NCBI GenBank assembly: GCA_963718565.1
Contig: OY970364.1
Span: 1,792,001-1,856,000, forward strand
Direction of reading: 5' to 3'
DNA length: 64,000 nucleotides
Origin: an uncultured Verrucomicrobiae bacterium
Lineage (GTDB): Bacteria > Chlamydiota > Chlamydiia > Chlamydiales > Rhabdochlamydiaceae
Shown piece after piece: positions 22,920-43,456 of this stretch. Under the pieces are notes generated by a model. That model was not told the origin of the DNA, did not search any database, and saw only the letters and a list, made by a program, of their open reading frames with translations. Numbering within the stretch: position 1 is the stretch's first letter; every line of letters starts with the position of its first letter. Made by a program: the position numbers and the translations under genes.

Positions 22920-24920
22920 ATGGGGATGTTCCACTTAAAAACTGAATTTTCTCCGCGTGGAGACCAGCCTCAAGCGATCGAACGTATCGTTAGCGGAATT
23001 CAATCGGGCAAAAAATCGCAAGTCTTATTAGGTGTGACAGGTTCAGGAAAGACATTCACGATGGCAAATGTCATTGATCGCATCAAGCGACCTGCCCTGA
23101 TCATTGCGCATAACAAAACTTTAGCAGCACAACTTTATCAAGAATTTAAATCTTTCTTTCCTGACAATGCCGTTGAGTACTTTGTTTCCTATTATGATTA
23201 TTACCAGCCGGAAGCTTATATTGCCCGCACCGATACCTACATCGAAAAGGACCTTGCTATCAACGATCAGATCGACCGAATGCGGCTCAGCGCCACACGT
23301 TCATTGATCGAGCGCAATGATGTGATCATCGTCTCCTCTGTCTCTTGTATCTATGGCTTAGGCTTGCCAGAATACTACGCCCAAATGTTGCTGATTTTTA
23401 AAGTGGGGGAAAAGCGCCGCCGCGATGATGCCTTACTTCACCTTGTTGAAATGCGTTACAAGCGCAGTGATCTTGACCTGATGCGTTCGACATTTCGCGC
23501 TCGCGGCGATATTCTTGAAATTTTGCCTGCCTATGAAGAAGACATTGCCTATCGGATCGAATTTTTCGGCGATGAGATCGATCGCATCAGCGAAATCGAT
23601 CCTCTCACAGGCAAAGTGCGGCAACGTTTAGAACAGGTCACCATCTATCCTGGATCTCACCATGTGACTCCCGAATCTGTCCGCCTTATTGCACTGGAAA
23701 CAATCAAAACGGAGCTCAAAGAGCGAGTCGCTTTCTATGAGAAAGAAAAACGTTACGTAGAGATGCAACGCATTCATCAACGCACGACCTACGACGCGGA
23801 GATGATCAAAGAAATCGGTTTTTGCAAAGGGGTCGAGAATTATTCCCGCCATTTCAGCCGCCGCTTGTCAGGGCAGCCCCCTCCTTGCCTTCTCGATTAT
23901 TTCCCTAAAGATTTTCTGCTATTTATCGATGAGTCCCATCAAACATTGCCGCAATTGCACGCGATGTACAACGGCGACCGTTCGCGCAAAGAATCGCTTG
24001 TCGAATTTGGTTTCCGTCTTCCTTCTGCTTTCGACAACCGTCCGTTGAAATTTGAAGAGGTTTACCAACGCATTGAGCAAGTCGTCTATGTCTCGGCCAC
24101 GCCTGGAATGTGGGAAGTCCAAGAAGCGCACGGGGATGTGATCCAGCAGATCATCCGGCCTACGGGGCTTCTCGATCCTGAAATCACAGTGAAACCTGCC
24201 GAGGCGCAAGTCGACGATTGTCTAGAGCAAATCCGCCAAGAAACCGAAAAAGGCGGCCGAGTCCTCGTCACGACACTCACTAAAAAACTCTCCGAAGATT
24301 TGAGTAAATATCTCACGGAGATTGGCGTCAAAGCAAAATATCTCCATTCGGACATCGAGACCCTTGAGCGCGTCCAAATCATCAATGATCTGCGTCGCGG
24401 CCAATTTGATGTCCTTGTCGGCATCAACTTATTGCGCGAAGGACTAGACATTCCGGAAGTGTCTCTGGTTTGCATCCTTGATGCCGATAAAGAAGGATTT
24501 TTACGGAGTGAGACTTCGTTGATCCAGACCTGCGGGAGAGCTGCGCGCAACCTCAATGGCCGTGTCATCATGTATGCCGACAAAATCACCAAATCGATTC
24601 AAAACACGCTCGACATTACTTGTGAAAGACGTGCCTTGCAAAAAAAATATAATGAAGAACATGGGATTACGCCTCACACAGTCCGACGCGGGCTCATTCA
24701 AGATCTTGCGGAAACTTTTGGCGAGGTTGTACAAACCCTCCAAGAAGAAGAAAAAGAAGTTCCCTCTCAACTTTCGGCAGATGAAGTGGAAGATAAAATC
24801 AAAGAATACGACATGGAAATGCGCCGTGCAGCCAAAGAGTTGCGTTTTGAAGATGCAGCCCATTTCCGCGATCTGCTAAGACATTATGAAAAGCTGCGCA
24901 TTCTGGAAGATAAGCTATGA
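22920..24920 (+). CDS. uvrB: Excinuclease ABC subunit B
   Basis: GDQP.AI, GVTGSGKT, YYDYYQPEAY, DESH, GRAARN motifs. Confidence 0.97.
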   Translation: MGMFHLKTEFSPRGDQPQAIERIVSGIQSGKKSQVLLGVTGSGKTFTMANVIDRIKRPALIIAHNKTLAAQLYQEFKSFFPDNAVEYFVSYYDYYQPEAYIARTDTYIEKDLAINDQIDRMRLSATRSLIERNDVIIVSSVSCIYGLGLPEYYAQMLLIFKVGEKRRRDDALLHLVEMRYKRSDLDLMRSTFRARGDILEILPAYEEDIAYRIEFFGDEIDRISEIDPLTGKVRQRLEQVTIYPGSHHVTPESVRLIALETIKTELKERVAFYEKEKRYVEMQRIHQRTTYDAEMIKEIGFCKGVENYSRHFSRRLSGQPPPCLLDYFPKDFLLFIDESHQTLPQLHAMYNGDRSRKESLVEFGFRLPSAFDNRPLKFEEVYQRIEQVVYVSATPGMWEVQEAHGDVIQQIIRPTGLLDPEITVKPAEAQVDDCLEQIRQETEKGGRVLVTTLTKKLSEDLSKYLTEIGVKAKYLHSDIETLERVQIINDLRRGQFDVLVGINLLREGLDIPEVSLVCILDADKEGFLRSETSLIQTCGRAARNLNGRVIMYADKITKSIQNTLDITCERRALQKKYNEEHGITPHTVRRGLIQDLAETFGEVVQTLQEEEKEVPSQLSADEVEDKIKEYDMEMRRAAKELRFEDAAHFRDLLRHYEKLRILEDKL

Positions 24921-26368
24921 CATCCAAAATGGTTTTCGGAAATCTCCGAGAGAAAATCACAGAAAATAGAACGATCGTCTCTCTTTTATCACTGTTATTC
25001 ATCATTTTCCCTTTCCAAAGAAGATTTCATGGATGCATAGATTCATGGTCAAGAAGGTTAGCTCTTCCCGACTTCCCTCTTCCTCCATTTTTTTCCAAAA
25101 AGATCCATCTCTTTATCACTGATCCACTCTTTGTCATCTTAGCGCTCATTCTTCTTTTCCGCTTTAAAGTCAGTTTCCGCGAGCTTTTTTGGGATGGTCC
25201 CTCTAAATATTTGACACTTCTTTTTTTCACAGCGTTGACTTCTCTCTATTTTTCTATCACAAGCCATTATGCGCTCCAATATTTGCGCCTCTTTCAATTT
25301 TCATTGATTTTTTTATTTTTTAATTCGATCTGTTGTGTTCGAAAAAGAATCGACTTGATCTCTTTCACTCATCAACTCGCCTGGATCCTCGTTATCGTTT
25401 CCTGTTTCCAGTGCGCTCTTGGCATTTATCAGTATTTCAATCAGCATTCCCTGGGCTTAAGCTTTTTGGGTGAGCTTAATATGCGCCATTTTCCCTTCCT
25501 CAATCCAGGAAAGCACAGGTGGCTTTTCGATAAATCCCAATCATGCGAGCTCTTATATCGCGCTAGCGGAACATTTACACATCCCAACATCTTAGGTGGA
25601 TTTCTGTTCTGCTCCGTTCTGGCGTCTTTTTATTTGTTCATTAAAACCGAGGCCAAACTTAAGCTCATCCTCTTAATCAGCGTGATTTGTTTGCAGGTCT
25701 TTACACTTTACGTTGTCTTTTCCCGTTCTGCAATCTTAGCGCTCGTTTTGACGATTTTTATCTGGGGAGTTCTTCAATACAAAGCTATCCTAAAACAGAA
25801 AGATTTTCGCTCTCCGGCAGTCCGTAGATTCGCAATCCTCGCTTCCACAATTCTTGTGAGCGGTGTGTTCGGCATCGTGCTTTTCTATTCGCAACTCACA
25901 GCAAGGGGCGGGATCATCAATTACAATGGTGTAACCAGTTATGCCGATTCAGAGCGCATTCAATACTTAAGAATGGCCATCGACATGATTAAAGAGCATC
26001 CTCTATTCGGCATTGGATTCAATAATTTTCAGCTCTATGAAGAGCCGATCCAGCCCGACTATCCCGGTCATGTTTTCTTTTCCAAGGTTCATAATATCTA
26101 TCTTCTCATCGCCTCTGAAATGGGCCTGATCAGCGGCGGGTTTTTTTTGCTCTTTATCTTTTCGATCTTAAAAAAGTCATGGAAGGGCATTTGGCAACAA
26201 GAAGGCTCTCAAGAAAGGATTTTTCTTCTTTCCGTCTTTTTGGGGTTATTGTTTATAGGCGCATGCGACTTTTATCTCGTCCACACCCCACACGGGAGAA
26301 TGTTATTTTTTGGCTTTGCTGCGCTGCTTTATTCTATTAATAAGACAGCGGAAGATAGATCATGTTAA
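24917..26368 (+). CDS. O-antigen ligase family membrane protein
   Basis: RASGTF.HPN, SRSA, HPLFGIGFNNF, VHNIYL...SEMG motifs. Confidence 0.8.
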   Translation: MTSKMVFGNLREKITENRTIVSLLSLLFIIFPFQRRFHGCIDSWSRRLALPDFPLPPFFSKKIHLFITDPLFVILALILLFRFKVSFRELFWDGPSKYLTLLFFTALTSLYFSITSHYALQYLRLFQFSLIFLFFNSICCVRKRIDLISFTHQLAWILVIVSCFQCALGIYQYFNQHSLGLSFLGELNMRHFPFLNPGKHRWLFDKSQSCELLYRASGTFTHPNILGGFLFCSVLASFYLFIKTEAKLKLILLISVICLQVFTLYVVFSRSAILALVLTIFIWGVLQYKAILKQKDFRSPAVRRFAILASTILVSGVFGIVLFYSQLTARGGIINYNGVTSYADSERIQYLRMAIDMIKEHPLFGIGFNNFQLYEEPIQPDYPGHVFFSKVHNIYLLIASEMGLISGGFFLLFIFSILKKSWKGIWQQEGSQERIFLLSVFLGLLFIGACDFYLVHTPHGRMLFFGFAALLYSINKTAEDRSC

Positions 26369-27321
26369 GGAATTTAAAATGGCTCATTTATTTAGCTTTA
26401 TTGATTGCCATGGTCTCTTTTGTTCATAGTGAACAAAACAATCATCGACTCGTCAAGGAGAAAAAACGAAAGAAGCCATTGCCGCAACAGCCTGCAGAGC
26501 CCCACTCTCTCCAGTATACTCCCGTATGGCCTCCACCTTTCCAGTATACTCCAGAACTTCCTCGGCCAAGTTCTTTTTACGATCCTTTAGTTGATTATTT
26601 TTTGAAAAATAAAATCATCTTGTGCACCGGCCCATCTTTGGGTCGATATGAGATGTTAAAAAGGACAGTTGAGGATGATTTAAAACTTATTCCGTTTAAA
26701 AAAATATTCATCACGACTAATGATTCTGCGAATGTAGGAATTACTTTTAATGAGGGAAAGGTTATTCCAGCTCAATGTTATTTAATTCCAGATAAGGGGC
26801 AAGCGATAGATTGTGCTAACTGTATCATTTCGACAATGAGACATGCAGTGAACCATCCTGAAGTTCAAGATGACGATATTATTCTATTCAAGCATGAGAG
26901 TGTATATATTAATGATATGGAATTGATTAGTAGAGCAATCAATAAGATGGTCAATGAAGGATATGATATGGTCAATAGACGGCTGTATCCAAGTTGTTGG
27001 AATTTTGGGATTATTTGTACAGATACAGATACCTTTTTTGTGAAAGTATCCGCAATTCGAGAAATCATTAAAGATTCCCCTGACATCATTGAATTACCGC
27101 CTCATCAATCGTTTTGTGAATTGTATTTTCATGAAAACATAGTGAAGTACATCCCTAATGCATACAGCATTTCTTATTGCCACAATAATGGAGGACCGAC
27201 GGAATTAGGATTTTATCATTATGCAAAAAGGAATCAACCCTTTTGGGATAGAACAAATTATGACCAACTTTATATCCAACCCGCTTTTGAAGTTGCTTGG
27301 GCATATACGGCACGCGGTTAG
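26362..27321 (+). CDS. Hypothetical protein with N-terminal signal/TM and Pro-rich stem (possible glycosyltransferase)
   Basis: Hydrophobic N-terminus, basic/Pro-rich linker with duplicated QYTP, DDDIILFKHE. The last residues (YTARG*) come from element D. Confidence 0.5.
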   Translation: MLRNLKWLIYLALLIAMVSFVHSEQNNHRLVKEKKRKKPLPQQPAEPHSLQYTPVWPPPFQYTPELPRPSSFYDPLVDYFLKNKIILCTGPSLGRYEMLKRTVEDDLKLIPFKKIFITTNDSANVGITFNEGKVIPAQCYLIPDKGQAIDCANCIISTMRHAVNHPEVQDDDIILFKHESVYINDMELISRAINKMVNEGYDMVNRRLYPSCWNFGIICTDTDTFFVKVSAIREIIKDSPDIIELPPHQSFCELYFHENIVKYIPNAYSISYCHNNGGPTELGFYHYAKRNQPFWDRTNYDQLYIQPAFEVAWAYTARG

Positions 27322-27466
27322 GTTTGGTGAATTTTGGTGCGTCCTCAAAAACCTATGGCAAGCACTGAATGTTATTTGGATCCATGCCGGGCTTTGCATT
27401 TATCGATCTCAATCAGGCATGGATCAAAATGGTCTTCAACTTTTGCCATGAGTTTTTAAGGATGTA
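27304..27466. repeat. Family D end followed by a ~130-bp imperfect hairpin module
   Basis: TATACGGCACGCGGTTAGGTTTGGTGAATTTTG (also at 46170-46202), then arms GTCCTCAAAAACCTATGGCAA...GGATCCATGCC / GGCATGGATC...TTGCCATGAGTTTTTAAGGAT. Confidence 0.75.
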
Positions 27467-27467
27467 T

Positions 27468-29128
27468 TAAAAAATGTTCTACAGAACATAGTGGCCTTAG
27501 AGTCAGTCCACAAACAGGTTTGTGGACTGACCCTTATCGCCAAAGAGTTTGTTTGGGGGAAAGTTCAATGATTTATTGGTTCAATAGCTTATGTGCTTTG
27601 ACGCTGACCAGCGCAGGTATTTTGGCTGATGAAAATCTTTTGCTTCAAACTGAGGAGATCTCTTCTCATCAAGCTGAGGAATCTGTTCCCCAACAAACGC
27701 TAGAAAAAGAAAGATGTAAAGGCCCTCATCATCGATGGGCTTCTGTGCGTTATACGACCCCTGAAGGTATCGGCTACAAGAACGGCTACACTACCTTGGA
27801 AGGCTTTTTTACTCCTAGGAATCTGCCCAAAGATGCCTGGATTCCCTTTTTGGATCTGCGCGGGCATGTCTTCGATAACGGTAAACTGGCTGCAAATGCA
27901 GGATTAGGACTGCGTTACTTGGCCCGTTCACGTGTATGGGGAGTGAATGCTTATTATGATTATCGCAACACCGAACGCCAGCACTACAATCAAGTCGCTG
28001 TAGGGCTTGAGTCCTTGGGAAGAGTTTGGGATTTCCGCATGAATGGTTACCTTCCTGTAGGCAGAAAGCAAAGCCCATTTTCTCATCCCAAATTTGTTGC
28101 TTTTGAAGAACACGCCATGCTCATCAAAAGAAAGCGCAATTTTGCGATGAAAGGCGCCAATGCTGAAATGGGAGTCCATGTCGATCATTTTGAAAACGCA
28201 CCCCTCTACTTTGCAGCAGGCCCTTACTATTTGACTGGAGTAGGGGCGAGCACTTGGGGAGGGGAACTACGCGGCGCTGTCGATTTATTCCGCCGTTATC
28301 TTCGCATAGAAGGCAACGTCTCCTATGACCATTTCTTTGGATGGGTCGGTCAGGCGCAAGCCAGCATTAATATCCCTTTTGGAAGAAGATGGAAAGTAGA
28401 AAAAAAAGAGGATCGATCCTGTTCAAAAATGGCAACTTTATATGCGCGCGCCATGCAACGAGTCGATCGCTATGAAATCATTCCCGTTGGCAAACAAAAA
28501 GTTACCTCGCGTGCCATTGATCCTGCGACAGGAAAACCCTGGTTCTTCTGGTTCGTGGACAATACGAGCTCTTCAGCTGGAACGTTTGAAGATCCCTTCC
28601 CCACGCTTTTGGCTGCACAGAATGCTTCCCTCCCAAACCAAGGCATCTACGTATTCCCTGGAGATGGAACCACTCGAGGGATGAATAGCGGGATTACCCT
28701 GCAAAATGGGCAGATATTCTTAGGCGCCGGCGTACAGCAATCTGTGGTAACGGCAGCGGGGACCGTCGTCGTCCCTCCACTCGCATCCAGTTCGCCCAAT
28801 ATCACCAATACCGCTGGCAACATTGTGACTTTAGCAAATAATAATGCCGTTTCAGGGTTTAATGTGTTGGTACAACACGGATATGGTCTTGTAGGAACTG
28901 GGATCTCCAATCTTTTTGCCGGTCAGAATGCCTTTATCGCAAGCAACCCCAACTTCGATGGAATCAATTTGGTTAATCCTTCTGGACAAGTCTTTATCAG
29001 TGATAGTTCTTTTACTGGATTTTCTTGTACTAATATAGGGCACCACGGCAATGGAATCTATCTGGAGCTTGATGCTGGTTCCATGCTTGCTAGTTTGAGT
29101 ATCACGGGAAATTCTTTGAGTCACTTTA
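27468..29128 (+). repeat. Left arm of a 1661-bp near-perfect inverted repeat (partner 35635-37295)
   Basis: Both boundaries were matched by eye and give equal lengths. Only one amino-acid difference (Y/H) is seen between the encoded proteins in this span. Confidence 0.9.
27500..27533. mobile_element. Collapsed family B element (34 bp) with TTA duplication
   Basis: TTA GAGTCAGTCCACAAAC-AG-GTTTGTGGACTGACCC TTA; mirror copy at about 37230-37263. Confidence 0.8.
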
Positions 29129-29868
29129 CTAAAACCAACACTAGTTTCGGCGGTCATGGTGTTTTCTTGAACATGAATGGGGGTGCCTTAGGTGCAGCGA
29201 TAGTTTTCAATAATGCTTTTAGCAACTTCTCTAACAGCTCTCAGGCAATTAATATCCTTTTTGATGGTGTATTCGATAATTTAAATATCTCAAGTTGCTC
29301 TTTTAATAATATGAATCAGAGTAACGCCATTTTCATATCCATCGACTCTGGCGTTCTGGACAACCTAAACATATCGGATTGTCTCTTTAGCAATATCTCA
29401 GGAGCCATTGCTATTAGGGCCGATATAGATGACGGTGTTATCAATCATTTCAATGTTTCTAACAATGCCTTCGAAAATCTGAGTAATAGCCATGCCTGTA
29501 CATTTCAACTTGGGCTTAATGCGATCAACGACCTTAGCGTATCAGGAAATTCTTTCAATAATTTCAATTCTTCGAGCACTGCCATTTCTTATACCCTGTT
29601 CTTTCCAGGAAGTGCTTCACTGCAGGTGCTAGATAATACTTTTATTGGCGGCAACAATGAAGGGACTGGTTACGCAGCCTATATTCAGACGTATGGCTCA
29701 TTGTGTTTAGAATTTATTGGCAATAGCGCGACGCCTGCTAATAACCCAATTCCCTATTCGTTACTTAATTTGGGGGGGACATTCAATAGGACTACTGGAT
29801 CAGACAACACGACAAATATAGGCCAATTCCAATTAACAGACGTAAACCCACCGGGCTCTTGTCCTTAA
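27568..29868 (+). CDS. Inverse-autotransporter beta-barrel protein with beta-helix passenger (inverted pair, variant A)
   Basis: Signal peptide MIYWFNSLCALTLTSAGILA; barrel motifs GVNAYYD, Q..VGLESLG, DFRMNGYLPVG; LDNLNIS beta-helix repeats. Confidence 0.78.
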   Translation: MIYWFNSLCALTLTSAGILADENLLLQTEEISSHQAEESVPQQTLEKERCKGPHHRWASVRYTTPEGIGYKNGYTTLEGFFTPRNLPKDAWIPFLDLRGHVFDNGKLAANAGLGLRYLARSRVWGVNAYYDYRNTERQHYNQVAVGLESLGRVWDFRMNGYLPVGRKQSPFSHPKFVAFEEHAMLIKRKRNFAMKGANAEMGVHVDHFENAPLYFAAGPYYLTGVGASTWGGELRGAVDLFRRYLRIEGNVSYDHFFGWVGQAQASINIPFGRRWKVEKKEDRSCSKMATLYARAMQRVDRYEIIPVGKQKVTSRAIDPATGKPWFFWFVDNTSSSAGTFEDPFPTLLAAQNASLPNQGIYVFPGDGTTRGMNSGITLQNGQIFLGAGVQQSVVTAAGTVVVPPLASSSPNITNTAGNIVTLANNNAVSGFNVLVQHGYGLVGTGISNLFAGQNAFIASNPNFDGINLVNPSGQVFISDSSFTGFSCTNIGHHGNGIYLELDAGSMLASLSITGNSLSHFTKTNTSFGGHGVFLNMNGGALGAAIVFNNAFSNFSNSSQAINILFDGVFDNLNISSCSFNNMNQSNAIFISIDSGVLDNLNISDCLFSNISGAIAIRADIDDGVINHFNVSNNAFENLSNSHACTFQLGLNAINDLSVSGNSFNNFNSSSTAISYTLFFPGSASLQVLDNTFIGGNNEGTGYAAYIQTYGSLCLEFIGNSATPANNPIPYSLLNLGGTFNRTTGSDNTTNIGQFQLTDVNPPGSCP

Positions 29869-29886
29869 TTTATTTGTGCAACAAAG

Positions 29887-31233
29887 TTATTGTTCAATTC
29901 TCGCTTTGATTTTCATGATATACCCTAAGCTGATGCCCATGTGAACCCAAATGTAGCTTCTGAAGAGCCCTTGATTAATTTGCAAACACACAAGAGAAAC
30001 GATGACCGAGATCAGCAATGCAAGCACATTTGTTTTTTCTTCTGGGAGAATCTTCTCATGCCTAAGAAGGCTTTTAAATTGCTTCCATATCAGGATGAGA
30101 AATACACCAAATCCAATCAGTCCATAAATTCCCAAGGAACCTAAAATTTCACTGAATACGTTCGTAGGCTCAAAACTGAAAAGATGCGCTATTGCTTTTT
30201 TTTCAAGAGTCCTTTGATCAAAAAAATCTATCGAAGGAACGTTGACGCCATATTGTGCGTATAAATAAGAGCTGATTCCCCCAATGCCGACTCCAAAACA
30301 GGGATTCTCCATAAAAGCTTGTAGAGCAGAAAAAATTCCGCTGAACCGAATAAAAAAAGATTCATGCGTAATGCCTGCGTAGAAGAATTTGAGAAAAGTT
30401 CTTTTAAAAAGCTCGAAAAAAGCAATACTACTCAGCAGAAATGAAGCAAAAAATAACGCTGTGATTTTTAATAGTTTTTTTCTCGATTTAAAAAAACAAG
30501 ATTTTAAAAATGGATATCGAGGGAAAAAAAATACGACTAAGAAAAACACGAAGTAAGAAATGGCCGCAGTCGTCGTTGTCGAGATGAGAAGAAAAAGATT
30601 AGCGATGAAGAGCAAGCATCGATTCTTCATTTTGTTTAAAGTCGGTGGCAAAGAATGCCTTTTTCCATAGCTGCGCTCTTCTGCTTTCATTGAGCTTACA
30701 AATAGGTGCTTAGCATTTAAAAAGACAATAAAAGGAATAGAATAAAGAGCGTAAAAAGAGGGTTCGAGAGCAAACGCGGATCCCCTTGCGAAGATGATTT
30801 TTTGAGTTGTAAAGGGAAGGGTGATCCCAAAAATGGAAAAGAAAAACTGTAGGAATGCATAAGATCCTATAATAAAAAAAGAGCTGACATAAGATTTAAG
30901 CAGCTTCTTTTCATCGCCAAACCACATGAAATTAAATGGGATTAGAAAATAAACACAAAATGAAAAAAAATAAATTAGGCTGTAGGCCAACGATCGGAAT
31001 GTTACGATGCTTTTAAGTGAGGAAATGATCATGGAGGATAAAATCAACAAAAAACAAAAAAACATTGTTTTTTCAATGACTATCTTTCTGCAACAGAAGT
31101 AGATGCAAAAGATTAAAAATCCAATGAGGTGTGGAAGCTTGAGTTGAAAACCAGAGAGTGAAATACTGATTAAATCAGCAGAGGTGACTAATAAGTAAAA
31201 AAAGAAAAAAAGCAAAAAAATGTTCTTTTTCAA
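29887..31233 (-). CDS. Wzy/O-antigen ligase-like polysaccharide polymerase
   Basis: Very hydrophobic and AT-rich; RGSAFALEPS and P.FGVGIG motifs. Confidence 0.7.
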   Translation of the reverse strand: MKKNIFLLFFFFYLLVTSADLISISLSGFQLKLPHLIGFLIFCIYFCCRKIVIEKTMFFCFLLILSSMIISSLKSIVTFRSLAYSLIYFFSFCVYFLIPFNFMWFGDEKKLLKSYVSSFFIIGSYAFLQFFFSIFGITLPFTTQKIIFARGSAFALEPSFYALYSIPFIVFLNAKHLFVSSMKAEERSYGKRHSLPPTLNKMKNRCLLFIANLFLLISTTTTAAISYFVFFLVVFFFPRYPFLKSCFFKSRKKLLKITALFFASFLLSSIAFFELFKRTFLKFFYAGITHESFFIRFSGIFSALQAFMENPCFGVGIGGISSYLYAQYGVNVPSIDFFDQRTLEKKAIAHLFSFEPTNVFSEILGSLGIYGLIGFGVFLILIWKQFKSLLRHEKILPEEKTNVLALLISVIVSLVCLQINQGLFRSYIWVHMGISLGYIMKIKARIEQ

Positions 31234-32639
31234 ACAGAGCTCAAACTTTCTTGATGGCGGCCATAGATATCATCCAAACGGATGATATCATCTTCACCCA
31301 CATACTCCCCGACTTGAACTTCGATGAGCTCTAGCGCAACTTTGCCCGGATTTTCCAATCGATGCACTTCCGATTTCGGGACATAAATGCTCTCGTTTTC
31401 ATGAACGAGCACTTCCTTATCGCCAATAGTGACTTTAGCAGTCCCTTTAACGACGATCCAATGCTCGCTGCGATGGTAATGCATCTGCAGGCTCAATCGA
31501 TGGCCTGGATCGACGACAATCCGTTTAATCTTGTAGCGAATACCTTCTTCGAGAACTGTGAACTTGCCCCAAGGGCGATGCGACGTCAAATTCTCAAACG
31601 GCTCTTTAGCATTTCTTTTTTTTAATTCGTCGACAAGATTCTTGACGCGCTGGGATTCTCCTTTTTTCCCGATGAACAGCGCATCATCCGTCTCGATGAC
31701 GAGCAAATCCTTAAGCCCGATGGTAGAAATCAGATGCTTGCTTCCCATGATGAGGCAATTGTGCGTATCGATGTCGAGGACGTTTCCAATTTTAGCATTG
31801 TGATTCTCATCTTTTTCGAGAAGTTCGTAAACACTATCCCAAGACCCGACATCCGACCAAGTGACGTCCAATGGAATCATCACGGTCTTTTTTGATTTTT
31901 CCATCAAAGCGTAATCAATGGAAATGTCGGGCATTTCCGCAAATTCTGCTAGGCACTGCTCAAAAGGATGTTGCAGCTTCCCAGAAATGATAGGGCAATG
32001 TTCCTGCATTTCTTGCATAAATGTCCCGACATTAAAAAGAAAAATCCCCGAGTTCCAAAGATAATGGCCATCGAGAAGGTACTGCTCGGCGAGTTCAAGG
32101 CTGGGCTTTTCAACAAATTCATCCACTTCATAAATGTCGGGTTCAAGAGATCGCTTAGCTTTGATATAACCATAACCTATCTCAGGCTTATGAGGACGAA
32201 TGCCAAAGATCACATTGTTGCCTTTTTTCGCAAGCGTTTCCCCTTTTGCAATGGTATCTAAAAACTTTTCCTGAGGTGAAATAAAATGATCGGAGGAAGA
32301 AACCAAAATCGTCTCACTTAAGGAAATCACTCCGATCTTTTGAAGATAGGCAATCGCTAAGGCAATCGCTGGGGCAGTATTTCTGCGTTCAGGTTCGATA
32401 AGAATTTGATTTTCTAATTCAGGAGTAATCTCACACACTTGGGTCTTTACAAGATGATAGTAAGCTTGATTCGTGACGATGAGAAGGTCTGCGTACCGAT
32501 AGCGACCTACAAAGCGCTCGATTGTTTTTTGCAGAAGTGATTTTTGATCTCCAAAATGCAAAAATTGTTTAGGGAAACAACTTCTGGAATAGGGCCAAAG
32601 CCGAGTCCCGCTACCGCCAGCGAGAATGATGATTTTCAT
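31230..32639 (-). CDS. manC: Mannose-1-phosphate guanylyltransferase / mannose-6-phosphate isomerase
   Basis: ILAGGSGTRLWP.SR...PKQF, WSDVGSW, RPWG, SLQMH.HRSEHW motifs. Confidence 0.93.
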   Translation of the reverse strand: MKIIILAGGSGTRLWPYSRSCFPKQFLHFGDQKSLLQKTIERFVGRYRYADLLIVTNQAYYHLVKTQVCEITPELENQILIEPERRNTAPAIALAIAYLQKIGVISLSETILVSSSDHFISPQEKFLDTIAKGETLAKKGNNVIFGIRPHKPEIGYGYIKAKRSLEPDIYEVDEFVEKPSLELAEQYLLDGHYLWNSGIFLFNVGTFMQEMQEHCPIISGKLQHPFEQCLAEFAEMPDISIDYALMEKSKKTVMIPLDVTWSDVGSWDSVYELLEKDENHNAKIGNVLDIDTHNCLIMGSKHLISTIGLKDLLVIETDDALFIGKKGESQRVKNLVDELKKRNAKEPFENLTSHRPWGKFTVLEEGIRYKIKRIVVDPGHRLSLQMHYHRSEHWIVVKGTAKVTIGDKEVLVHENESIYVPKSEVHRLENPGKVALELIEVQVGEYVGEDDIIRLDDIYGRHQESLSSV

Positions 32640-33735
32640 GAAACTCCCCCAATTTTCGCGTGACAAAATCTTGAAATTCTTTTTGAAAACGCGCTTTATT
32701 AAATTTCTGAGCATTCTCACGAAGGATTTTAGGATCAAACTCCATGCGATCGAACTCGCTCAAGATTTTTAGCAAACTTGGAATTGTTTGCGCATCAAAA
32801 AATAGACCTGTTTTTCCTTCGATCACGGTTTCTAACGTCGCTCCTCGACCAAAAGCGATGACAGGCGTGCCAGCAGCTTGGGCTTCGACAACGACAATGC
32901 CAAAATCTTCTTCAGCAGCAAAGATAAAGGCTTTTGCCCTTTTCATATAATCGCGAACGACAGAATCGCTTTGATGCCCTAAAATCTCAATGTTTTTGCT
33001 CGCTTTTTGTTTCACCTTCGCCATTTCGGGCCCATCGCCGATGACAACCAATTTTCTTTCAGGAGTTTGAGAAAAAGCTTCGACAATGAGATCCATCTTT
33101 TTGTAGGGCACCAAGCGAGAAACTGTGAGATAAAAGTTCTCTTTGGCCCCTTGATAGGGGATTTCTTCAACATTGACTGGCGGATAAATGACCTCAGAAT
33201 CGCGTCCATACACTTTTTTGATGCGTTTTGCAATATAATGGGAAATCGCAGCGAAATGGTCGACGCGATTTAAGGAGGCAATGTCCCAATTTCTTAAACG
33301 GTGCAAAACAAGTCGCGTGAGAAATTTTTGCAACGGGCCTAACTCTTCCAAATAACACTGTGCCAGTTCCCAAGCATAGCGCATAGGAGTGAGACAATAA
33401 CACAGGTGAAGTTGTCCAGGATGAGTGAGGGCACCTTTAGCAACAGCATGCGAGGTGGAAATGACAAGCTCGTAGTGGTTCAAATTGAATTGCTCAATTG
33501 CCAAGGGGAAAAAAGGAAGCAAATAGCGATAACAAGAAGTAGAAAAAGGAATTTTTTGCAGGAAGGAAGTATGGATTTCCGCTTTGGAGAGTGCAGTTTT
33601 TGCCAGCGCTTTGTCACAATAGACAAGGCTGTAAATCGGAGCAGGAAAGGATTCGTAAATCGCTTCCAGTGTTTTTTCTCCGCCGCCAACAGTGACGAGC
33701 CACTCATAAACGAGCGCTGTTTTAACATCTTTCAT
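32611..33735 (-). CDS. GT4 glycosyltransferase (WbaZ-like mannosyltransferase)
   Basis: GGGEK, Y..TPMRYAW, SRLVPYK, EEDFGIV.VEAQA.GTPVIA motifs. Confidence 0.88.
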   Translation of the reverse strand: MKDVKTALVYEWLVTVGGGEKTLEAIYESFPAPIYSLVYCDKALAKTALSKAEIHTSFLQKIPFSTSCYRYLLPFFPLAIEQFNLNHYELVISTSHAVAKGALTHPGQLHLCYCLTPMRYAWELAQCYLEELGPLQKFLTRLVLHRLRNWDIASLNRVDHFAAISHYIAKRIKKVYGRDSEVIYPPVNVEEIPYQGAKENFYLTVSRLVPYKKMDLIVEAFSQTPERKLVVIGDGPEMAKVKQKASKNIEILGHQSDSVVRDYMKRAKAFIFAAEEDFGIVVVEAQAAGTPVIAFGRGATLETVIEGKTGLFFDAQTIPSLLKILSEFDRMEFDPKILRENAQKFNKARFQKEFQDFVTRKLGEFHENHHSRWR

Positions 33736-33760
33736 CCGTCCTCCGGCGGAAACCCGACCC

Positions 33761-34813
33761 TTAAAGCCTGGGTTCACTGACAAGTTCTCGCGCCGAGCTT
33801 CGGACAAGTTCGAGATCGTGTTTCATCATCACTTGCACGAGTTCTTTAAGAGGGGTTTTAGAGGACCAGCCGAGTTTTTGCTTTGCTTTGCTAGAATCGC
33901 CAACCAAAAGGTCAACCTCGGAGGGCCTGAAGAATTCGGGAGAAATTTCGACGATTAGGCGGCCAGAATTTTTATCATGGCCTTTCTCATGGATACCGCG
34001 TCCCGACCATTCGATTTCCATGCCAATCTCATCAAAAGCAAGTTTCACAAATTCGCGAACAGTCGTTGTTTCTCCAGTAGCAAGGACATAATCCTCAGGC
34101 CTAGCTTGCTGCAGCATGAGCCACATTCCTTCCACGAAATCTTTTGCATATCCCCAATCGCGTTTTGCATCGAGGTTGCCAAGAACGAGCTTATCCTGCA
34201 AACCTGCGGCAATTTTTGCAACGGCCAGAGTAATTTTCCGCGAAACGAAAGTTTCACCTCTTCGCGGGCTTTCATGATTAAACAAAATGCCGTTGCAGGC
34301 GTAGAGATTATAAGCTTCTCTATAGTTCACGATCGCCCAATACGCATAGAGCTTGGCCACCCCATAAGGAGAGCGAGGATAGAAAGGCGTTGTCTCAGAC
34401 TGAGGGATTTGTTGGGCTTTGCCATAAAGTTCCGATGTCGATGCTTGATAAAGACGTGTATGAGGAGAATTTTTACGTACGGACTCTAAAAGTCTAAGAA
34501 CGCCCACCCCAGCGATATTGGCGGTGTATTCTGGAATATCAAAAGAGACTCTCACATGGCTCATCGCTGCTAAATTATAAATTTCATCCGGCTGAAGTAA
34601 GTCGACAAGCCGGTCCAAAGATGAGGAGTCTGCGAGATCCCCTTCGTGCAAGGTAATTTCCCGGGTGGGATCTAAGAGTGTTTGGATGCGAGATAAATTT
34701 GATGTGGAAGAGCGTCGAACAAGGCCATGGACATCATATCCTTTCTCCAAGAGGAGTTCTGCCAAATAAGAGCCATCCTGTCCTGTAATCCCCGTAATCA
34801 GAGCCTTTTTCAC
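33761..34813 (-). CDS. gmd: GDP-mannose 4,6-dehydratase
   Basis: [39 protein letters not shown] motifs. Confidence 0.96.
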
Positions 34814-34897
34814 GTTTTCCTCTTTTGCATATTTGCGAAAAAATGGTCGAAAGATCAGATTACACGATTCGCGAAATTTTTTTCACGGGAATTACTG

Positions 34898-37195
34898 TTA
34901 AGGACAAGAGCCCGGTGGATTTACGTCTGTTAATTGGAACTGGCCTATATTTGTCGTATTGTCCGACCCAGTAGTCCTATTGAATGTCCCCCCAGAATTC
35001 GCGAAGAAATAAGGAGTGGGGCTACTAGCAGGCGTCGCGCTATTGCCAATAAATTCTAAACACAATGAGCCAGACGTCTGAATATCGGCTGCGTAACCAC
35101 TCACTTCATTGTTGCCGCCAATAAAAGTATTATCTAGCACCTGCAATGAAGCACTTTCTGGAGAGAACAGGTGATAAAAAATGGCAGTGCTCGAAGAATT
35201 GAGATTATAGAAAGAATTTCCTGATACGCTAAGGTCTTTGATCGGGTTAAGGGCAAGTTGAAATACAACGCCCATACTACTACTACTCAGATTTTCGAAG
35301 GCATTGTTAGAAACATTGAAATGATTGATAACACCATCTACAGAGGCATTAATAGCGCTGGATACTGAGAAATTGGTAAATAAACAATCCGATATGTTTA
35401 GGTTGTCCAGAATGCCAGAGTCGGTGGATATGAAAATGGCGCTAGTCTGACTGATGTTATTAAAAGAGCAACTTGAGATATTTAAATTATCGAGTGTACC
35501 ATTAACGACGACATAAATTGACATAGAGAAGTGGGAGAAATTATTAAAAGCATTATCGGAAATGATCGCTGCACCTAAGGCACCCCCATTCATGTTCAAG
35601 AAAACACCATTACCACCGTTACCATTGATTTCAATAAAGTGACTCAAAGAATTTCCCGTGATACTCAAACTAGCAAGCATGGAACCAGCATCAAGCTCCA
35701 GATAGATTCCATTGCCGTGGTGCCCTATATTAGTACAAGAAAATCCAGTAAAAGAACTATCACTGATAAAGACTTGTCCAGAAGGATTAACCAAATTGAT
35801 TCCATCGAAGTTGGGGTTGCTTGCGATAAAGGCATTCTGACCGGCAAAAAGATTGGAGATCCCAGTTCCTACAAGACCATATCCGTGTTGTACCAACACA
35901 TTAAACCCTGAAACGGCATTATTATTTGCTAAAGTCACAATGTTGCCAGCGGTATTGGTGATATTGGGCGAACTGGATGCGAGTGGAGGGACGACGACGG
36001 TCCCCGCTGCCGTTACCACAGATTGCTGTACGCCGGCGCCTAAGAATATCTGCCCATTTTGCAGGGTAATCCCGCTATTCATCCCTCGAGTGGTTCCATC
36101 TCCAGGGAATACGTAGATGCCTTGGTTTGGGAGGGAAGCATTCTGTGCAGCCAAAAGCGTGGGGAAGGGATCTTCAAACGTTCCAGCTGAAGAGCTCGTA
36201 TTGTCCACGAACCAGAAGAACCAGGGTTTTCCTGTCGCAGGATCAATGGCACGCGAGGTAACTTTTTGTTTGCCAACGGGAATGATTTCATAGCGATCGA
36301 CTCGTTGCATGGCGCGCGCATATAAAGTTGCCATTTTTGAACAGGATCGATCCTCTTTTTTTTCTACTTTCCATCTTCTTCCAAAAGGGATATTAATGCT
36401 GGCTTGCGCCTGACCGACCCATCCAAAGAAATGGTCATAGGAGACGTTGCCTTCTATGCGAAGATAACGGCGGAATAAATCGACAGCGCCGCGTAGTTCC
36501 CCTCCCCAAGTGCTCGCCCCTACTCCAGTCAAATAGTAAGGGCCTGCTGCAAAGTAGAGGGGTGCGTTTTCAAAATGATCGACATGGACTCCCATTTCAG
36601 CATTGGCGCCTTTCATCGCAAAATTGCGCTTTCTTTTGATGAGCATGGCGTGTTCTTCAAAAGCAACAAATTTGGGATGAGAAAATGGGCTTTGCTTTCT
36701 GCCTACAGGAAGGTAACCATTCATGCGGAAATCCCAAACTCTTCCCAAGGACTCAAGCCCTACAGCGACTTGATTGTAGTGCTGGCGTTCGGTGTTGCGA
36801 TAATCATAATAAGCATTCACTCCCCATACACGTGAACGGGCCAAGTAACGCAGTCCTAATCCTGCATTTGCAGCCAGTTTACCGTTATCGAAGACATGCC
36901 CGCGCAGATCCAAAAAGGGAATCCAGGCATCTTTGGGCAGATTCCTAGGAGTAAAAAAGCCTTCCAAGGTAGTGTAGCCGTTCTTGTAGCCGATACCTTC
37001 AGGGGTCGTATAACGCACAGAAGCCCATCGATGATGAGGGCCTTTACATCTTTCTTTTTCTAGCGTTTGTTGGGGAACAGATTCCTCAGCTTGATGAGAA
37101 GAGATCTCCTCAGTTTGAAGCAAAAGATTTTCATCAGCCAAAATACCTGCGCTGGTCAGCGTCAAAGCACATAAGCTATTGAACCAATGAATCAT
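34898..37195 (-). CDS. Inverse-autotransporter beta-barrel protein with beta-helix passenger (inverted pair, variant B)
   Basis: First ~520 aa essentially identical to variant A; C-terminal ~245 aa divergent in periodic patches. Confidence 0.78.
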   Translation of the reverse strand: MIHWFNSLCALTLTSAGILADENLLLQTEEISSHQAEESVPQQTLEKERCKGPHHRWASVRYTTPEGIGYKNGYTTLEGFFTPRNLPKDAWIPFLDLRGHVFDNGKLAANAGLGLRYLARSRVWGVNAYYDYRNTERQHYNQVAVGLESLGRVWDFRMNGYLPVGRKQSPFSHPKFVAFEEHAMLIKRKRNFAMKGANAEMGVHVDHFENAPLYFAAGPYYLTGVGASTWGGELRGAVDLFRRYLRIEGNVSYDHFFGWVGQAQASINIPFGRRWKVEKKEDRSCSKMATLYARAMQRVDRYEIIPVGKQKVTSRAIDPATGKPWFFWFVDNTSSSAGTFEDPFPTLLAAQNASLPNQGIYVFPGDGTTRGMNSGITLQNGQIFLGAGVQQSVVTAAGTVVVPPLASSSPNITNTAGNIVTLANNNAVSGFNVLVQHGYGLVGTGISNLFAGQNAFIASNPNFDGINLVNPSGQVFISDSSFTGFSCTNIGHHGNGIYLELDAGSMLASLSITGNSLSHFIEINGNGGNGVFLNMNGGALGAAIISDNAFNNFSHFSMSIYVVVNGTLDNLNISSCSFNNISQTSAIFISTDSGILDNLNISDCLFTNFSVSSAINASVDGVINHFNVSNNAFENLSSSSMGVVFQLALNPIKDLSVSGNSFYNLNSSSTAIFYHLFSPESASLQVLDNTFIGGNNEVSGYAADIQTSGSLCLEFIGNSATPASSPTPYFFANSGGTFNRTTGSDNTTNIGQFQLTDVNPPGSCP

Positions 37196-37295
37196 TGAAC
37201 TTTCCCCCAAACAAACTCTTTGGCGATAAGGGTCAGTCCACAAACCTGTTTGTGGACTGACTCTAAGGCCACTATGTTCTGTAGAACATTTTTTA
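35635..37295 (-). repeat. Right arm of the 1661-bp inverted repeat
   Basis: Reverse complement of 27468-29128. Confidence 0.9.
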
Positions 37296-37327
37296 GTAAA
37301 GTTTTCTGACTAATTTCCCCCAGAAAA

Positions 37328-38587
37328 TCACCCCGTTTTGTTGGTTTTGCAATTCCCTCTAAGAATTTCCTCGAATATTTTCATATAGCCTTCGGCAGAT
37401 CTTTCCCAGGTAAATTTGCTAATGGCCTCTTTGGATTGTAAGGCTTTTGACTTAGCTTCTTGGGAATGGGTGAGGATGTGATCAATTTTACCAGCAATAT
37501 CTTCTGGTGACCTGGGATTGAAAACCTCTGCATGGACTTGATGAACGGCCATGTGTTCAAGGAAAGGAGGAATATTTGACATGGCCACGGGCGCGCCTCT
37601 TTCCCAGGCATCAAATCCGGGGACGTTTCCCCCTTCATATAAAGAAGGGTTGACGACAGCAGAGGCGCACTGGATCAGCGAATCGATCTCTTCGTTGGTC
37701 ACATAGCCCAGTCCGAAGACATCTTGGGGTTCGCAGTCCATTTCCACGCCAATAGCGCATATGCGGCCATTGATGACTTCGGTCCCAAGTCCTGTAAAAA
37801 CCAGAAGCAAATCGGGGTGCTTTTTCTTCAGTATCGCAAAAGCAGAAGCTAGAGGCCCAGTATTCTTGTGGCTGCAGATATTTGTCGGGCAAAGAAGATA
37901 CTCTTTTTTGATGCCTAGTTTGTTTCTGACAATATTAAGAGCCCTATCTTTATCAATTGCTGAAATGTTGCTTGTAGGGGCGACTGGGACAACTTTTGTT
38001 TTATGCCAAAATTCTGGATAAAATTTTTGCAGTTCGCCGCGCATAAATTCCGTGGAGACAATGGGTATCGCTCTGGAAAGCCAGATCGGCATTTCTCGAT
38101 TGAGTAATTCTAATACCCAAGGCACCATGACTTGTCCTGAGAAGAAATATTTGTAGTTAAAGTCATGGAATATACCTGCCATCGGGCACTTGAGCTCAGG
38201 ACATTTCAGATGGAAGGGCCAGATGAAAAAGGCGATGTCATAATCGATGATAAGAGTTTCAAGTTCTTTATGGACTGCTCCAGACAAATAAAAGGATATC
38301 GAGGACAAAGGTCCGGCAAATTTGCGCTGAAATAAATTCACCACATGGCGGCTGCCCCTGATATTGAATAGATCTCTGCCTGCTAACTTTGTTGAGGAAA
38401 GACCATGGATAGGAATCCCGTGAGCTTTGAAGACTTCATCCTGTTTTTCACGTAGGATGCTGTGAGGGTTTCCGAAAAAAGTGATCGATGTATTAGGCCT
38501 AATTTTTTTTAAGGCAGGAAGCAATGCTCGCGCAACGCGTGAACCTCCTCCTGGATTTCCGACATGGTCGATAACAGCAATTTTCAT
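37328..38587 (-). CDS. GT4 glycosyltransferase
   Basis: HKN and PSLYEG...P..DA...G.PV..S motifs. The C-terminal GNCKT is encoded by a family A end (37343-37359). Confidence 0.82.
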   Translation of the reverse strand: MKIAVIDHVGNPGGGSRVARALLPALKKIRPNTSITFFGNPHSILREKQDEVFKAHGIPIHGLSSTKLAGRDLFNIRGSRHVVNLFQRKFAGPLSSISFYLSGAVHKELETLIIDYDIAFFIWPFHLKCPELKCPMAGIFHDFNYKYFFSGQVMVPWVLELLNREMPIWLSRAIPIVSTEFMRGELQKFYPEFWHKTKVVPVAPTSNISAIDKDRALNIVRNKLGIKKEYLLCPTNICSHKNTGPLASAFAILKKKHPDLLLVFTGLGTEVINGRICAIGVEMDCEPQDVFGLGYVTNEEIDSLIQCASAVVNPSLYEGGNVPGFDAWERGAPVAMSNIPPFLEHMAVHQVHAEVFNPRSPEDIAGKIDHILTHSQEAKSKALQSKEAISKFTWERSAEGYMKIFEEILRGNCKTNKTG

Positions 38588-40116
38588 ATATTTTTGTTTT
38601 CAATGACCGTTTTTGAGAACAGACGCATCAAAGTCTCTCTCGCACGATTGCGTGCATAAGGGGAAACCAGAATGGATATCAACAGCGATGTAACATATGT
38701 CGACCCCAGAATTAAAACCGTGGAAGCCATATTGATATCTTTTTCAGGAAAAAAACATCGACCTGCCACAATGACCGCAAGCGAAGCAACAAAAGGGAGG
38801 CCCACATCCTGAATAAACCAACGGGATTTTTCATCCTTGATGATGCGTCGGTGCATCATATGAACAGATAATAAAAGAAAGCCGGCATTCATCACAATCC
38901 AAACCCAAGCGACCCCTTCTGCTCCAAAATGCACCGCACTCCAGTACATCAATGGAATCATGAGGATCAGATTGAGCAAATTCAAATAAAAGGAGAGCCT
39001 CGTCCATCCATAAGCATATTGCAGGGCTGTTGGCAAAACCAATAGCGCATTGAGCACCGTTTGGGTCATCAACAGTTTCACCAAAAAACTTGTTTTTTGA
39101 ACGATTTCTAGGCTTTGTGTCCAAAGAAATATGAGCTCAGAAGAAAAGAAAATGACAAAAAGAGCAGTGGGAACAACTAACGCCGACATCAATTGGCAGG
39201 AGATGTGATAAATATGTTTCAATTGATTGTGATCATTCAAAGAGATCAGTTGACTGAAGCGAGGGAAAAAAACGGAGTAAAGCGAGGCAGCGATATGCGG
39301 CAAAACCCAGGTAATTGTATTTGCAAAAGTATAATAGCCAAACAGGTCGAGAGGCAGGATCCGGCTTAAAAACATTTTGTCCAAATGGATGCAGGTCATT
39401 CCAATGATGGTAACGCCCGCGATTCCTATCGCATAGCCTCGTAAACGGCCTAAAATTGTTTTATCAAATCTCGGGGCGGCAGACCCTTTCGGAAGGCCCC
39501 TCCATAAAAACAGAGCAGTAAGGCAGGTTTGAATGATATTGATGATAATCTGCCAAATGAAAAAAGCCTGAATTGTCGGTGAGACATAAGTCAAGATCAA
39601 AACCATCCCAATCGCCCTTACCGTTCCCACAATCACGTTAATTGTATTGAGTAGGACTTGCTTTTGAAGACCCATTAATCCTCCTATATATAAAGAGGAA
39701 GGCCATAAAAACCCTAAAGCGATACCCATGCAAAAGATCCCCTGTTTGATCGTTGCGCGAGGGAGTTCCTTAGCATTGACCCAATGCTCACTGATGAATG
39801 GAGCTGCTAAAAAAACGCATATAGCAATCCCTATTGCCGTTGTCCAATAAATCACTTCTAGAGTTCGTGTAAGATCGCGAAAGTCTTTGGGTGGATTGGG
39901 TTGAGAACTGAGCCTTGCCATTTCTCTTGTCATTGAAGAGCCAAGTCCAAGATCAAAAATAGTAGACAGAGCGACAAGGGCGGTATAAATCCCCACTAAT
40001 CCATAAGCTTCAAAACCAATTAATTTGACGTAATAGGGTAAAAAAATAAGAGATATTGTGGTTGTCCATATTTTACCAACAAAATTAGCTGTGAAGTTTT
40101 TCTTTATGGAAGACAT
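38584..40116 (-). CDS. wzx: Wzx polysaccharide flippase
   Basis: Many TM helices; KN...N..G, G...YG, DLGL, DK..LS, G.Y motifs. Confidence 0.82.
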   Translation of the reverse strand: MSSIKKNFTANFVGKIWTTTISLIFLPYYVKLIGFEAYGLVGIYTALVALSTIFDLGLGSSMTREMARLSSQPNPPKDFRDLTRTLEVIYWTTAIGIAICVFLAAPFISEHWVNAKELPRATIKQGIFCMGIALGFLWPSSLYIGGLMGLQKQVLLNTINVIVGTVRAIGMVLILTYVSPTIQAFFIWQIIINIIQTCLTALFLWRGLPKGSAAPRFDKTILGRLRGYAIGIAGVTIIGMTCIHLDKMFLSRILPLDLFGYYTFANTITWVLPHIAASLYSVFFPRFSQLISLNDHNQLKHIYHISCQLMSALVVPTALFVIFFSSELIFLWTQSLEIVQKTSFLVKLLMTQTVLNALLVLPTALQYAYGWTRLSFYLNLLNLILMIPLMYWSAVHFGAEGVAWVWIVMNAGFLLLSVHMMHRRIIKDEKSRWFIQDVGLPFVASLAVIVAGRCFFPEKDINMASTVLILGSTYVTSLLISILVSPYARNRARETLMRLFSKTVIENKNI

Positions 40117-40331
40117 TTACCATGTAATTTTCGAAATTTACATTTGCAGACCGGGTGCGGTGTATCTTGGCAAACCTTCTTCATTTAAGGCAAGGCAAGT
40201 TTAGAGTCAGTCCACAAACCTAGTTATACTGAAGAAACTTCAAAGATTGGTTTTTTAGCCCCCTGTAACGCCTGTACGAACACAGCCGGCAGGGGATCAA
40301 CGCAAAGACGCATTGCAGCATCTATTATTTT

Positions 40332-41510
40332 CTCACCTTACGCAAAATGGGCTCCAACCATATCGCAACCAGTTCTGAACCGCAGCCGTTCAAGTTCTAA
40401 AAATGCCATTCGATTTGCCTTTATCAGTAATTGATATTTCAGAGCAAAATGATTCAAAAAAGTTTGAGTTCGGAGAAATTCCAACTTGCAATAAGCGATG
40501 ATTGATGCAAAAATATGGTTCTTTTGAGAGCGCAGAACCTTAGTCGGCGATTTCTCAAGGCTAGTGTTCTGCTTGATCGATTTGTGATATTCTTCTATGC
40601 GCCACCGTTTTTGGTAGATTTCGTAGATTCGGTCAGCACTACTTTCTAAGTCATTTGTAACAAGGTATAGAGTGCCTGTAGAGCCGTCTTCGTTTTTGAA
40701 GATCTTTGTAATGAGTGCTACAGAAAAAGACATGTCTTTTAGCCAGACTATTCTTTTTTCTCCATCCTTGAGTGGTAATGCATTTAGATTTTGGTACTGA
40801 CCATTTTTTCTGTCCTCTTCAGAAAGAGCGACCAATCGATTAGCTTTGATCCCAATTACAAACTTCTTTTTCATATCATAATGAATAAACTCCATATTTT
40901 TTTTCGCTCCGAACCAATTATCAGACAATATATAGTCAAATTTAACCTTATTGGTTACAGCTTGGGCAATCATAGATCGAAACATTTGATTTTTACTGAC
41001 TGAAGACTGTCTTTTTACTTTTTTGCTGGCGACATCACAAAAAAGCACGTCTTTATAAATAGGCTCATAAGCAATGGGTAAGGCAATATCTCCGTAGCGA
41101 GCAAGACATGATAAAAGGTTGACCCCCTTCACACATCTTCCCTTGGCATGCGAGTAATGCCAACAAATAATCTCATTTTCGTCCGTGTAGGTCTTCTCTT
41201 CAATCGTGTCATCAAAAATAAGCACTCCTCCTACATCTTGTTCAATCTTGCGAATTTCCGGCTTGATGTATTCCCATAGCTCTTTGGATGAAAATTCATT
41301 GCTGTTCAAAAATCTAGTAATTTTGTCATGACTAATCCGGCCTTCTAAGAGATCTGAGAGACCAACTGCTGTTGCATATTGATTCTGAGCAATCAAGTAA
41401 TCCGAATAGATATCGAGTAGTCTGTTCATTTTTTCTCCAAAAAATTGAACAAGACTACGAAAAAAAGACAGGCCTTATCAAGAAATTTTTACCGATTTGC
41501 GTAAGGTGAG
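40332..41510 (-). mobile_element. Insertion sequence, 1179 bp, IS701-like DDE element (copy 1)
   Basis: 15-bp TIRs CTCACCTTACGCAAA / TTTGCGTAAGGTGAG; 7-bp direct repeat TTATTTT (40325-31 and 41511-17). Confidence 0.92.
40338..41429 (-). CDS. DDE transposase (IS701/IS4 superfamily)
   Basis: IFDDT, SDNWF, Y.KRW.IEEYH..IKQ motifs; stop codon lies in the TIR. Confidence 0.9.
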   Translation of the reverse strand: MNRLLDIYSDYLIAQNQYATAVGLSDLLEGRISHDKITRFLNSNEFSSKELWEYIKPEIRKIEQDVGGVLIFDDTIEEKTYTDENEIICWHYSHAKGRCVKGVNLLSCLARYGDIALPIAYEPIYKDVLFCDVASKKVKRQSSVSKNQMFRSMIAQAVTNKVKFDYILSDNWFGAKKNMEFIHYDMKKKFVIGIKANRLVALSEEDRKNGQYQNLNALPLKDGEKRIVWLKDMSFSVALITKIFKNEDGSTGTLYLVTNDLESSADRIYEIYQKRWRIEEYHKSIKQNTSLEKSPTKVLRSQKNHIFASIIAYCKLEFLRTQTFLNHFALKYQLLIKANRMAFLELERLRFRTGCDMVGAHFA

Positions 41511-41559
41511 TTATTTTGCATTCATTCACGAAGGGTATCACAGGTTTGTGGACTGACTC

Positions 41560-43271: not shown

Positions 43272-43373
43272 TGGGTTTTCCTCTGCGTTTGAGAGTTTTT
43301 GGAAAAATTTAATGATCTCAACCATTATTGCGCCGCAAGGTTTTAGGATATAATTCTCATGTTTTTCTATAAA

Positions 43374-43456
43374 GAGGGAATGTTCAAAGTACGTCCTCAA
43401 AAACCTATGACATTCAGTGCTTGCCATAGGTTTTTGAGGGCGTACGCAATTCCCTC
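43374..43456. repeat. Family A ends enclosing a different hairpin module
   Basis: GAGGGAAT..GTACGTCCTCAAAAACCTATG-loop-CATAGGTTTTTGAGGGGCGTAC-GCAATTCCCTC TAA; the stem matches the module at ~27338-27370. Confidence 0.75.

Follow-up and report, generated by a model that had tools for sequence, protein, structure and literature searches.

In the G segment of phage Mu and the Hin system of Salmonella, inversion exchanges receptor-binding tips or the expression state, and both rely on a linked invertase that acts at short, dedicated sites. The sap locus of Campylobacter fetus combines one promoter inside invertible DNA with several silent cassettes. Passages on sap describe inversion within conserved 5′ regions of the surface-protein homologues (PMC1950947, PMC5634654). 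In Haemophilus influenzae, the adhesin genes hmw1A and hmw2A are described as most variable in the binding domain, which can be swapped between the two loci by gene conversion (PMC8262952). Inverse autotransporters, or type Ve proteins, are defined with a C-terminal passenger that is typically Ig-like or lectin-like (PMC6555100). Inverse autotransporters with a pectin-lyase-type passenger also exist, with Chlamydiae as an outlying group (Heinz et al. 2016, PMC4943183), and the supplements of that study may list the adhesins described here. For Parachlamydiaceae, birth-and-death families have been described, in which host-interaction genes expand in particular lineages and vary in copy number (PMC4209131). 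Our literature search, which covered titles and the openings of abstracts, found neither an inversion switch in Chlamydiae nor tip variation in the present family.

The locus lies in a stretch of 64,000 nucleotides, hereafter the window, of a soil chlamydia whose genome is assembled as a single contig (2.28 Mb, 95% complete). The window encodes a topA-SWIB fusion and a 732-aa GreA, which we take to be consistent with Chlamydiae. Records bearing homologues of the adhesins are mostly labeled Chlamydiae or Rhabdochlamydiaceae, and the remainder Verrucomicrobia or unclassified. The cumulative GC skew reaches its minimum near contig position 1783000, so the likely replication origin lies about 40 kb from the adhesin locus; recA is at 1787330-1788121. 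Seven intact-looking tyrosine recombinase genes and a split one lie within about 100 kb elsewhere on the contig (168000-271000). Repeats are abundant in the window. A DDE transposase element (40204-41559) is nested with other repeats inside a member of the TTA-flanked mini-element family described below, and a second copy is found near 56521-57723. A tandem array of four copies with a 178-bp period (55633-56466) has an inverted partial copy at 57778-57985, past an IS.

At the locus, two inverse autotransporter genes face each other across an operon of sugar and polymerase genes (table 1), as the sequence-only reading had described. The wzy label is based on position and on a Wzy_C match of 28.3 bits, below the Pfam cut-off of 31.7. 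The left flank carries uvrB and an O-antigen ligase gene and the right flank wzx-GT4. A 319-aa gene, absent from that reading, sits between the ligase and arm A.

Table 1. Features of the adhesin locus and its surroundings, in window coordinates
Feature	Position	Strand	Remarks
Tandem adhesin pair	7573-11784	minus	same family as genes A and B
319-aa gene	26362-27321		between ligase and arm A
Left end of another repeat family	27304-27336	plus	cut by the 131-bp element
131-bp mini-transposon	27337-27467	plus	hairpin-forming; arm A starts at the next base
Arm A	27468-29128	plus	100-bp leader and codons 1-520
Short dyad	27474-27489		7-bp arms; sequence confined to the two arms
34-bp mini-element (long dyad)	27500-27533		14-bp dyad; two fused terminal repeats, TTA target duplication
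Inverse autotransporter gene A	27568-29868	plus	766 aa; ATG after GGGGG-rich ribosome-binding stretch
Tip A	29129-29868	plus	distal beta-helix rungs and cap
Inner operon gmd-GT4-manC-wzy-like	29887-34813	minus	between the two convergent adhesin genes
wzy-like gene	29887-31233	minus
manC	31230-32738	minus	longest ORF
Inner GT4	32611-33807	minus
gmd	33761-34813	minus
Inverse autotransporter gene B	34898-37195	minus	765 aa
Tip B	34898-35634	minus
Arm B	35635-37295	minus	differs from arm A only opposite 27574
34-bp mini-element, arm B copy	37230-37263
Half of third repeat family	37311-37361	minus	15 bp outside arm B
Outer block GT4, wzx, nested IS, GT2, 230-aa gene	37328-43499	minus
Two fused left ends of the 131-bp family	43389-43445		candidate far end of a 16-kb inversion

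The near-perfect inverted repeat reported from the letters alone is present, 1661 bp long with one mismatch, a Tyr/His difference in codon 3. Its coding part comprises the signal peptide, the barrel, a linker and the first part of a beta-helix. The 5′ homology in inverted orientation provides the crossover substrate that a sap-type inversion requires. A single crossover in the repeat would, as previously deduced, flip the 6.5-kb middle, leave both frames open and make the tips exchange flanks. More generally, the genome is rich in near-identical inverted repeats within a few kb, and holds 109 merged repeat intervals overall.

Both proteins match Pfam IAT_beta (33.7 and 35.4 bits) above the curated cut-off of 22.3. 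A structure model made with 47 homologues (pLDDT 90.2, pTM 0.79) predicts an N-terminal barrel, a linker helix and then a long beta-helix. The predicted barrel best matches invasin (4e1t, E 6e-10) and intimin (4e1s, E 1e-8), and the modeled beta-helix passenger gives weak matches to tailspikes and glycosidases. The adhesin genes thus encode the N-terminal invasin/intimin-type barrel that marks type Ve. Judging by their architecture, these type Ve-like proteins are probably displayed at the surface and involved in adhesion.

The tips do differ as stated earlier, but they are not unrelated, since homology continues past 29128 up to the stop codon. They share 87% nucleotide and 75% amino acid identity over 244 aligned codons, with 25 silent and 73 replacement differences. 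By contrast with the tips, the 520 anchor codons show no silent and one replacement difference between the copies, and the Poisson chance of seeing no silent anchor change at the tip rate is 7e-24. The pair therefore combines a part homogenized at silent sites too with a divergent, putative binding part. Within the tips, 58 of 148 loop-plus-strand positions differ, versus four of 72 on the asparagine-ladder (core) side (p=2.6e-8, one rung anchor being missed in this count). Adding the missed rung gives pN 0.209 on the loop side versus 0.040 in the core. By analogy with known parallel beta-helices, the variable side of the rungs may form the binding groove. For the tips as a whole, dN is 0.141 and dS 0.171, with a bootstrap share of 0.77 for dN<=dS, and dN/dS is about 1.1 on the variable side. 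Positive selection across the whole tip is unsupported, as dN/dS is not above 1 overall, and relaxed constraint therefore fits these values too. A diversity-generating retroelement was ruled out, the tip substitutions not being adenine-specific.

Members of the family were found in 30 of the 41 genomes searched, with one genome per species; the source genome has seven matches in six loci. No conspecific assembly was found. A metagenome scan returned 12 loci, the best at 48% identity. In 10 of 11 same-genome pairs, mostly direct (tandem) copies, identity is 92-100% in barrel and linker and 44-90% in the tips; these pairs were chosen for high identity, and the proportion is not a frequency. The tandem pair of the window belongs to this pattern, with 99-100% identity in the 5′ part and 83-84% in the tip. 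As inversion is impossible between tandem copies, the sequence pattern needs no inversion. The upstream copy of the tandem pair has a 20-residue insertion near the N terminus that duplicates an internal barrel segment. In a quick tree restricted to sequences over 600 aa (51 of 56), near-identical copies cluster by genome. Inspection by eye of the leaders and trailers of 56 genes revealed no cassette-like ends common to the family. Alike anchors with divergent tips look like a family-wide habit rather than a dedicated on/off DNA switch.

The genomic sites of the family vary. One relative (G013) has members at sites that are empty in the source genome (G000). In another (G009, locus L037, 5877-7877), a member lies reversed between tyrP and uvrB, which directly adjoin in the other genomes examined. 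At locus L082 (8813-13292), a member is flanked on both sides by identical IS5-type copies, 919 bp long and inverted to each other; this layout is that of a composite transposon and could account for the mobility of family genes. A scan of 144 loci, some of which share a genome, turned up one further inverted pair (L141, 1-12085). Its genes are back to back and 100% alike over codons 100-300, and one copy leaves the locus end. Its interior encodes rnz-like, rhomboid, lon, dnaJ and class II tRNA synthetase genes, so an inverted pair needs no glycan operon. The coupling of adhesin and glycan operon proposed by the sequence-only reading looks incidental, given these housekeeping genes and the unrelated sites of the family between genomes.

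We favor, with a probability of roughly 0.6, the view that these are paralogues homogenized by RecA-type recombination, with the tips spared by selection and an occasional unprogrammed inversion. Two inverse autotransporter paralogues would have inserted to the left and right of the gmd-wzy operon, where mini-transposons have apparently caused much rearrangement. RecA-type gene conversion between the close copies would repeatedly overwrite the anchor part, and selection for two binding specificities would spare the tips. As the copies are inverted, some conversion events would end as crossovers, flipping the 6.5-kb middle. Such flips would be rare and unprogrammed, and one has perhaps already happened in the lineage.

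The next best explanation, a recent inverted duplication of the whole gene followed by replacement of one tip from another strain's allele, dispenses with repeated conversion. It readily accounts for a single mismatch in 1661 bp, for the mini-element in both leaders and for the sharp boundary at codon 521, and the family is mobile, as L082 illustrates. Against it, the 10 of 11 pairs across many genomes would demand many imports, and no donor closer than about 60% amino acid identity was present among the 41 genomes. We consider this history unlikely.

Gene order bears on whether the segment has flipped. We compared 18 relatives, five of which were excluded for lack of one gene or for having the genes on different contigs. 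In all 13 remaining same-genus genomes, gmd follows the O-antigen ligase gene in the same orientation, at distances of 40 bp to 6.8 kb. This comparison of orientation, which had been suggested as a check, reveals that gmd-wzy is reversed here relative to 13 of 13 relatives, and hence that an inversion happened. The flipped state would read ligase, 319-aa gene, adhesin, gmd-wzy, that is, the order of G003 plus one insertion. One flip in the repeat may already have occurred in the lineage, and a reversed gmd-wzy with the ancestral order in the flipped state would also fit an active switch.

An inversion of 16 kb, from 27.3 to 43.4 kb, explains the gene order equally well. The sequence at 43389-43445 shares 39 bp of inverted homology with 27337-27375. 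None of the seven closest relatives has the outer GT4 ahead of gmd; where the contig shows this gene, it is found beyond topA. Judging from these relatives, the outer block GT4-wzx-GT2 was moved to its present site. Both histories need this move and are therefore equally short, and the 16-kb inversion as sole explanation was dropped, GT4-wzx being beyond topA in the closest relatives. Swapped target duplications between 27337 and 43389, which would prove the 16-kb inversion, were not found. We also rejected an IS903-like end (29870-29888) as a bracket of the outer block in the flipped state: it has five mismatches in 19 and no 9-bp duplication, and about one such match is expected per shuffled genome.

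The edges of the repeat bear traces of mini-transposons. An 8-bp target duplication flanks 21 of the 26 paired copies of the 131-bp family and is absent at the copy preceding arm A. As this copy also cuts another repeat, it points to a transposase-made deletion at the edge. An inserted repeat (27304-27321) provides the final codons and stop of the 319-aa gene, and the third repeat (37328-37361) those of the outer GT4 gene.

In a selected RecA-driven phase switch, tip B and the GDP-sugar/Wzy operon would shuttle between positions of strong and weak read-through, and a flip would alter the dominant tip and gmd-wzy expression. Read-through from uvrB-ligase would have to pass the 131-bp hairpin, and on the other side it would come from wzx-GT4. 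The repeat geometry, the presence of recA, tips that differ on one face and an ancestral gene order in the flipped state would all suit such a switch. The leaders of genes A and B are identical, so a flip may be silent, and either orientation probably displays both tips. Our promoter scan (21 sites versus 35 in shuffles) found no consensus promoter or terminator at either leader, which also speaks for the switch: with no promoter-like site there, expression may depend on unequal read-through from the flanks, and a flip would matter. Also in its favor, a strong hairpin is predicted before arm A (-50.5 kcal/mol, z -5.5) and none before arm B. If the shared leader does hold a promoter, the tips and gmd-wzy, which always stands behind tip B, would be expressed alike either way. 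The evidence against a switch includes the same sequence pattern in tandem pairs and the housekeeping genes within the other inverted pair. Moreover, no family member adjoins gmd-wzy in the 20 loci examined, and neither a dedicated recombinase nor a dedicated site was found. We regard a switch of this kind as improbable.

Near-perfect identity abutting 13% divergence could also mean that two paralogues of greater divergence were collapsed during assembly or polishing. This seems very improbable, as the difference at 27574 was retained and many independently assembled genomes show the same pattern. Of six runs containing part of the window, none of them RNA, four were mapped to 22000-35620, which contains one arm; all consist of short contigs, and no contig spans an arm. 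Those of X1, X2 (possibly from the source campaign) and X5 (from a separate study) cover parts of the arm and list no variant letters inside it; they are of low depth and come from an assembly that drops variants. This lack of variant letters weakly argues against collapse. The X1 depth over the arm is raised and is not interpretable as copy number. One X1 contig is a mosaic of tips A and B joined through a shared 46-bp block; as the block exceeds the 31-letter assembly words, the contig may be an artefact and was not counted.

Both dyads at the outer edge of the repeat occur as spelled in the sequence-only reading, which had likened their asymmetric 2-bp cores to serine-invertase sites. This likeness did not hold. 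Ends of the long dyad are listed 14 times in the genome, and pairing yielded five elements that have such ends and carry a TTA or TAA duplication, of 34 bp (one in each arm), 42, 160, and 1356 bp. To judge from these sequences, the long dyad is a collapsed mini-transposon, presumably of an IS5-type family; in the leader RNA, it is predicted to fold as a hairpin. Dyads like the short one are frequent, 236 in the genome having arms of at least 7 bp and a non-palindromic 2-bp core, and the short dyad is either a chance occurrence or an operator. The segment thus lacks dedicated recombination sites unique to its ends.

The absence of a recombinase gene from the window was borne out, no resolvase or tyrosine-recombinase match falling there. 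Genome-wide, matches to resolvase domains number 14 and those to tyrosine recombinases 15. Among the former, 12 are multi-copy proteins, nearly identical and either 206 or 140 aa long, with a helix-turn-helix-like N-terminal start (four translated), which we take to be IS607-type; the other two are large serine recombinases. The genome (95% complete) contains no match to HTH_7 or to IS110/Piv-type proteins. The genome-wide search for invertases that had been called for thus yielded no Hin/Gin-type enzyme, and no cognate, usually linked invertase was found for the locus. The adhesin locus does not belong to the site-specific invertible elements. That a serine or tyrosine recombinase encoded at another place inverts the segment at the outer dyads, as the asymmetric cores and the resolvase and recombinase matches might have suggested, is scarcely credible given the nature of the long dyad and of the resolvases, and a crossover in the leader would invert whole genes with no within-gene swap of tips.

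Host recognition by environmental chlamydiae is largely open, and the family offers candidate adhesins. The natural adhesin pairs differ on one beta-helix side only, so binding specificity can be tested on them directly. If the RecA-driven switch were true, adhesin type and surface glycan would change together, and the locus would be an instance of a family-wide host-range system with constant anchor and variable tip in Rhabdochlamydiaceae-like bacteria. Should flipping prove frequent enough to measure, Chlamydiae would have an inversion switch.

Compared with the Mu G segment and Hin, the chlamydial homology is 1.66 kb long, the dyad is a transposon remnant and such an enzyme was not found. 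The locus shares with sap the conserved 5′ homology and homologues that bracket an unrelated gene block. In contrast to sap, its convergent copies have the same leader, in which no consensus promoter was seen; the analogy to sap drawn earlier is not supported here, as identical leaders make one expression site beside silent cassettes improbable. The proteins resemble the pectin-lyase group of PMC4943183 in their N-terminal invasin-type barrel and C-terminal beta-helix, and the passages of that study on the group are silent on paralogue homogenization, tip variation, and inverted pairs. The study of the Parachlamydiaceae families (PMC4209131) found no homogenization, whereas the present adhesin family has near-identical anchors within genomes. 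The likeness to hmw1A/hmw2A lies in two paralogous adhesin loci with the binding part most variable. The HMW proteins are described as two-partner secreted, with loci far apart and expression varying through heptamer repeats (PMC8262952), whereas the chlamydial pair is type Ve-like, inverted and 6.5 kb apart, with no heptamer-type repeat seen in the leader. By analogy, the best reading is that the locus would work like the hmw1A/hmw2A pair and not like an invertase switch; on present evidence, it neatly illustrates an evolutionary process that is already known.
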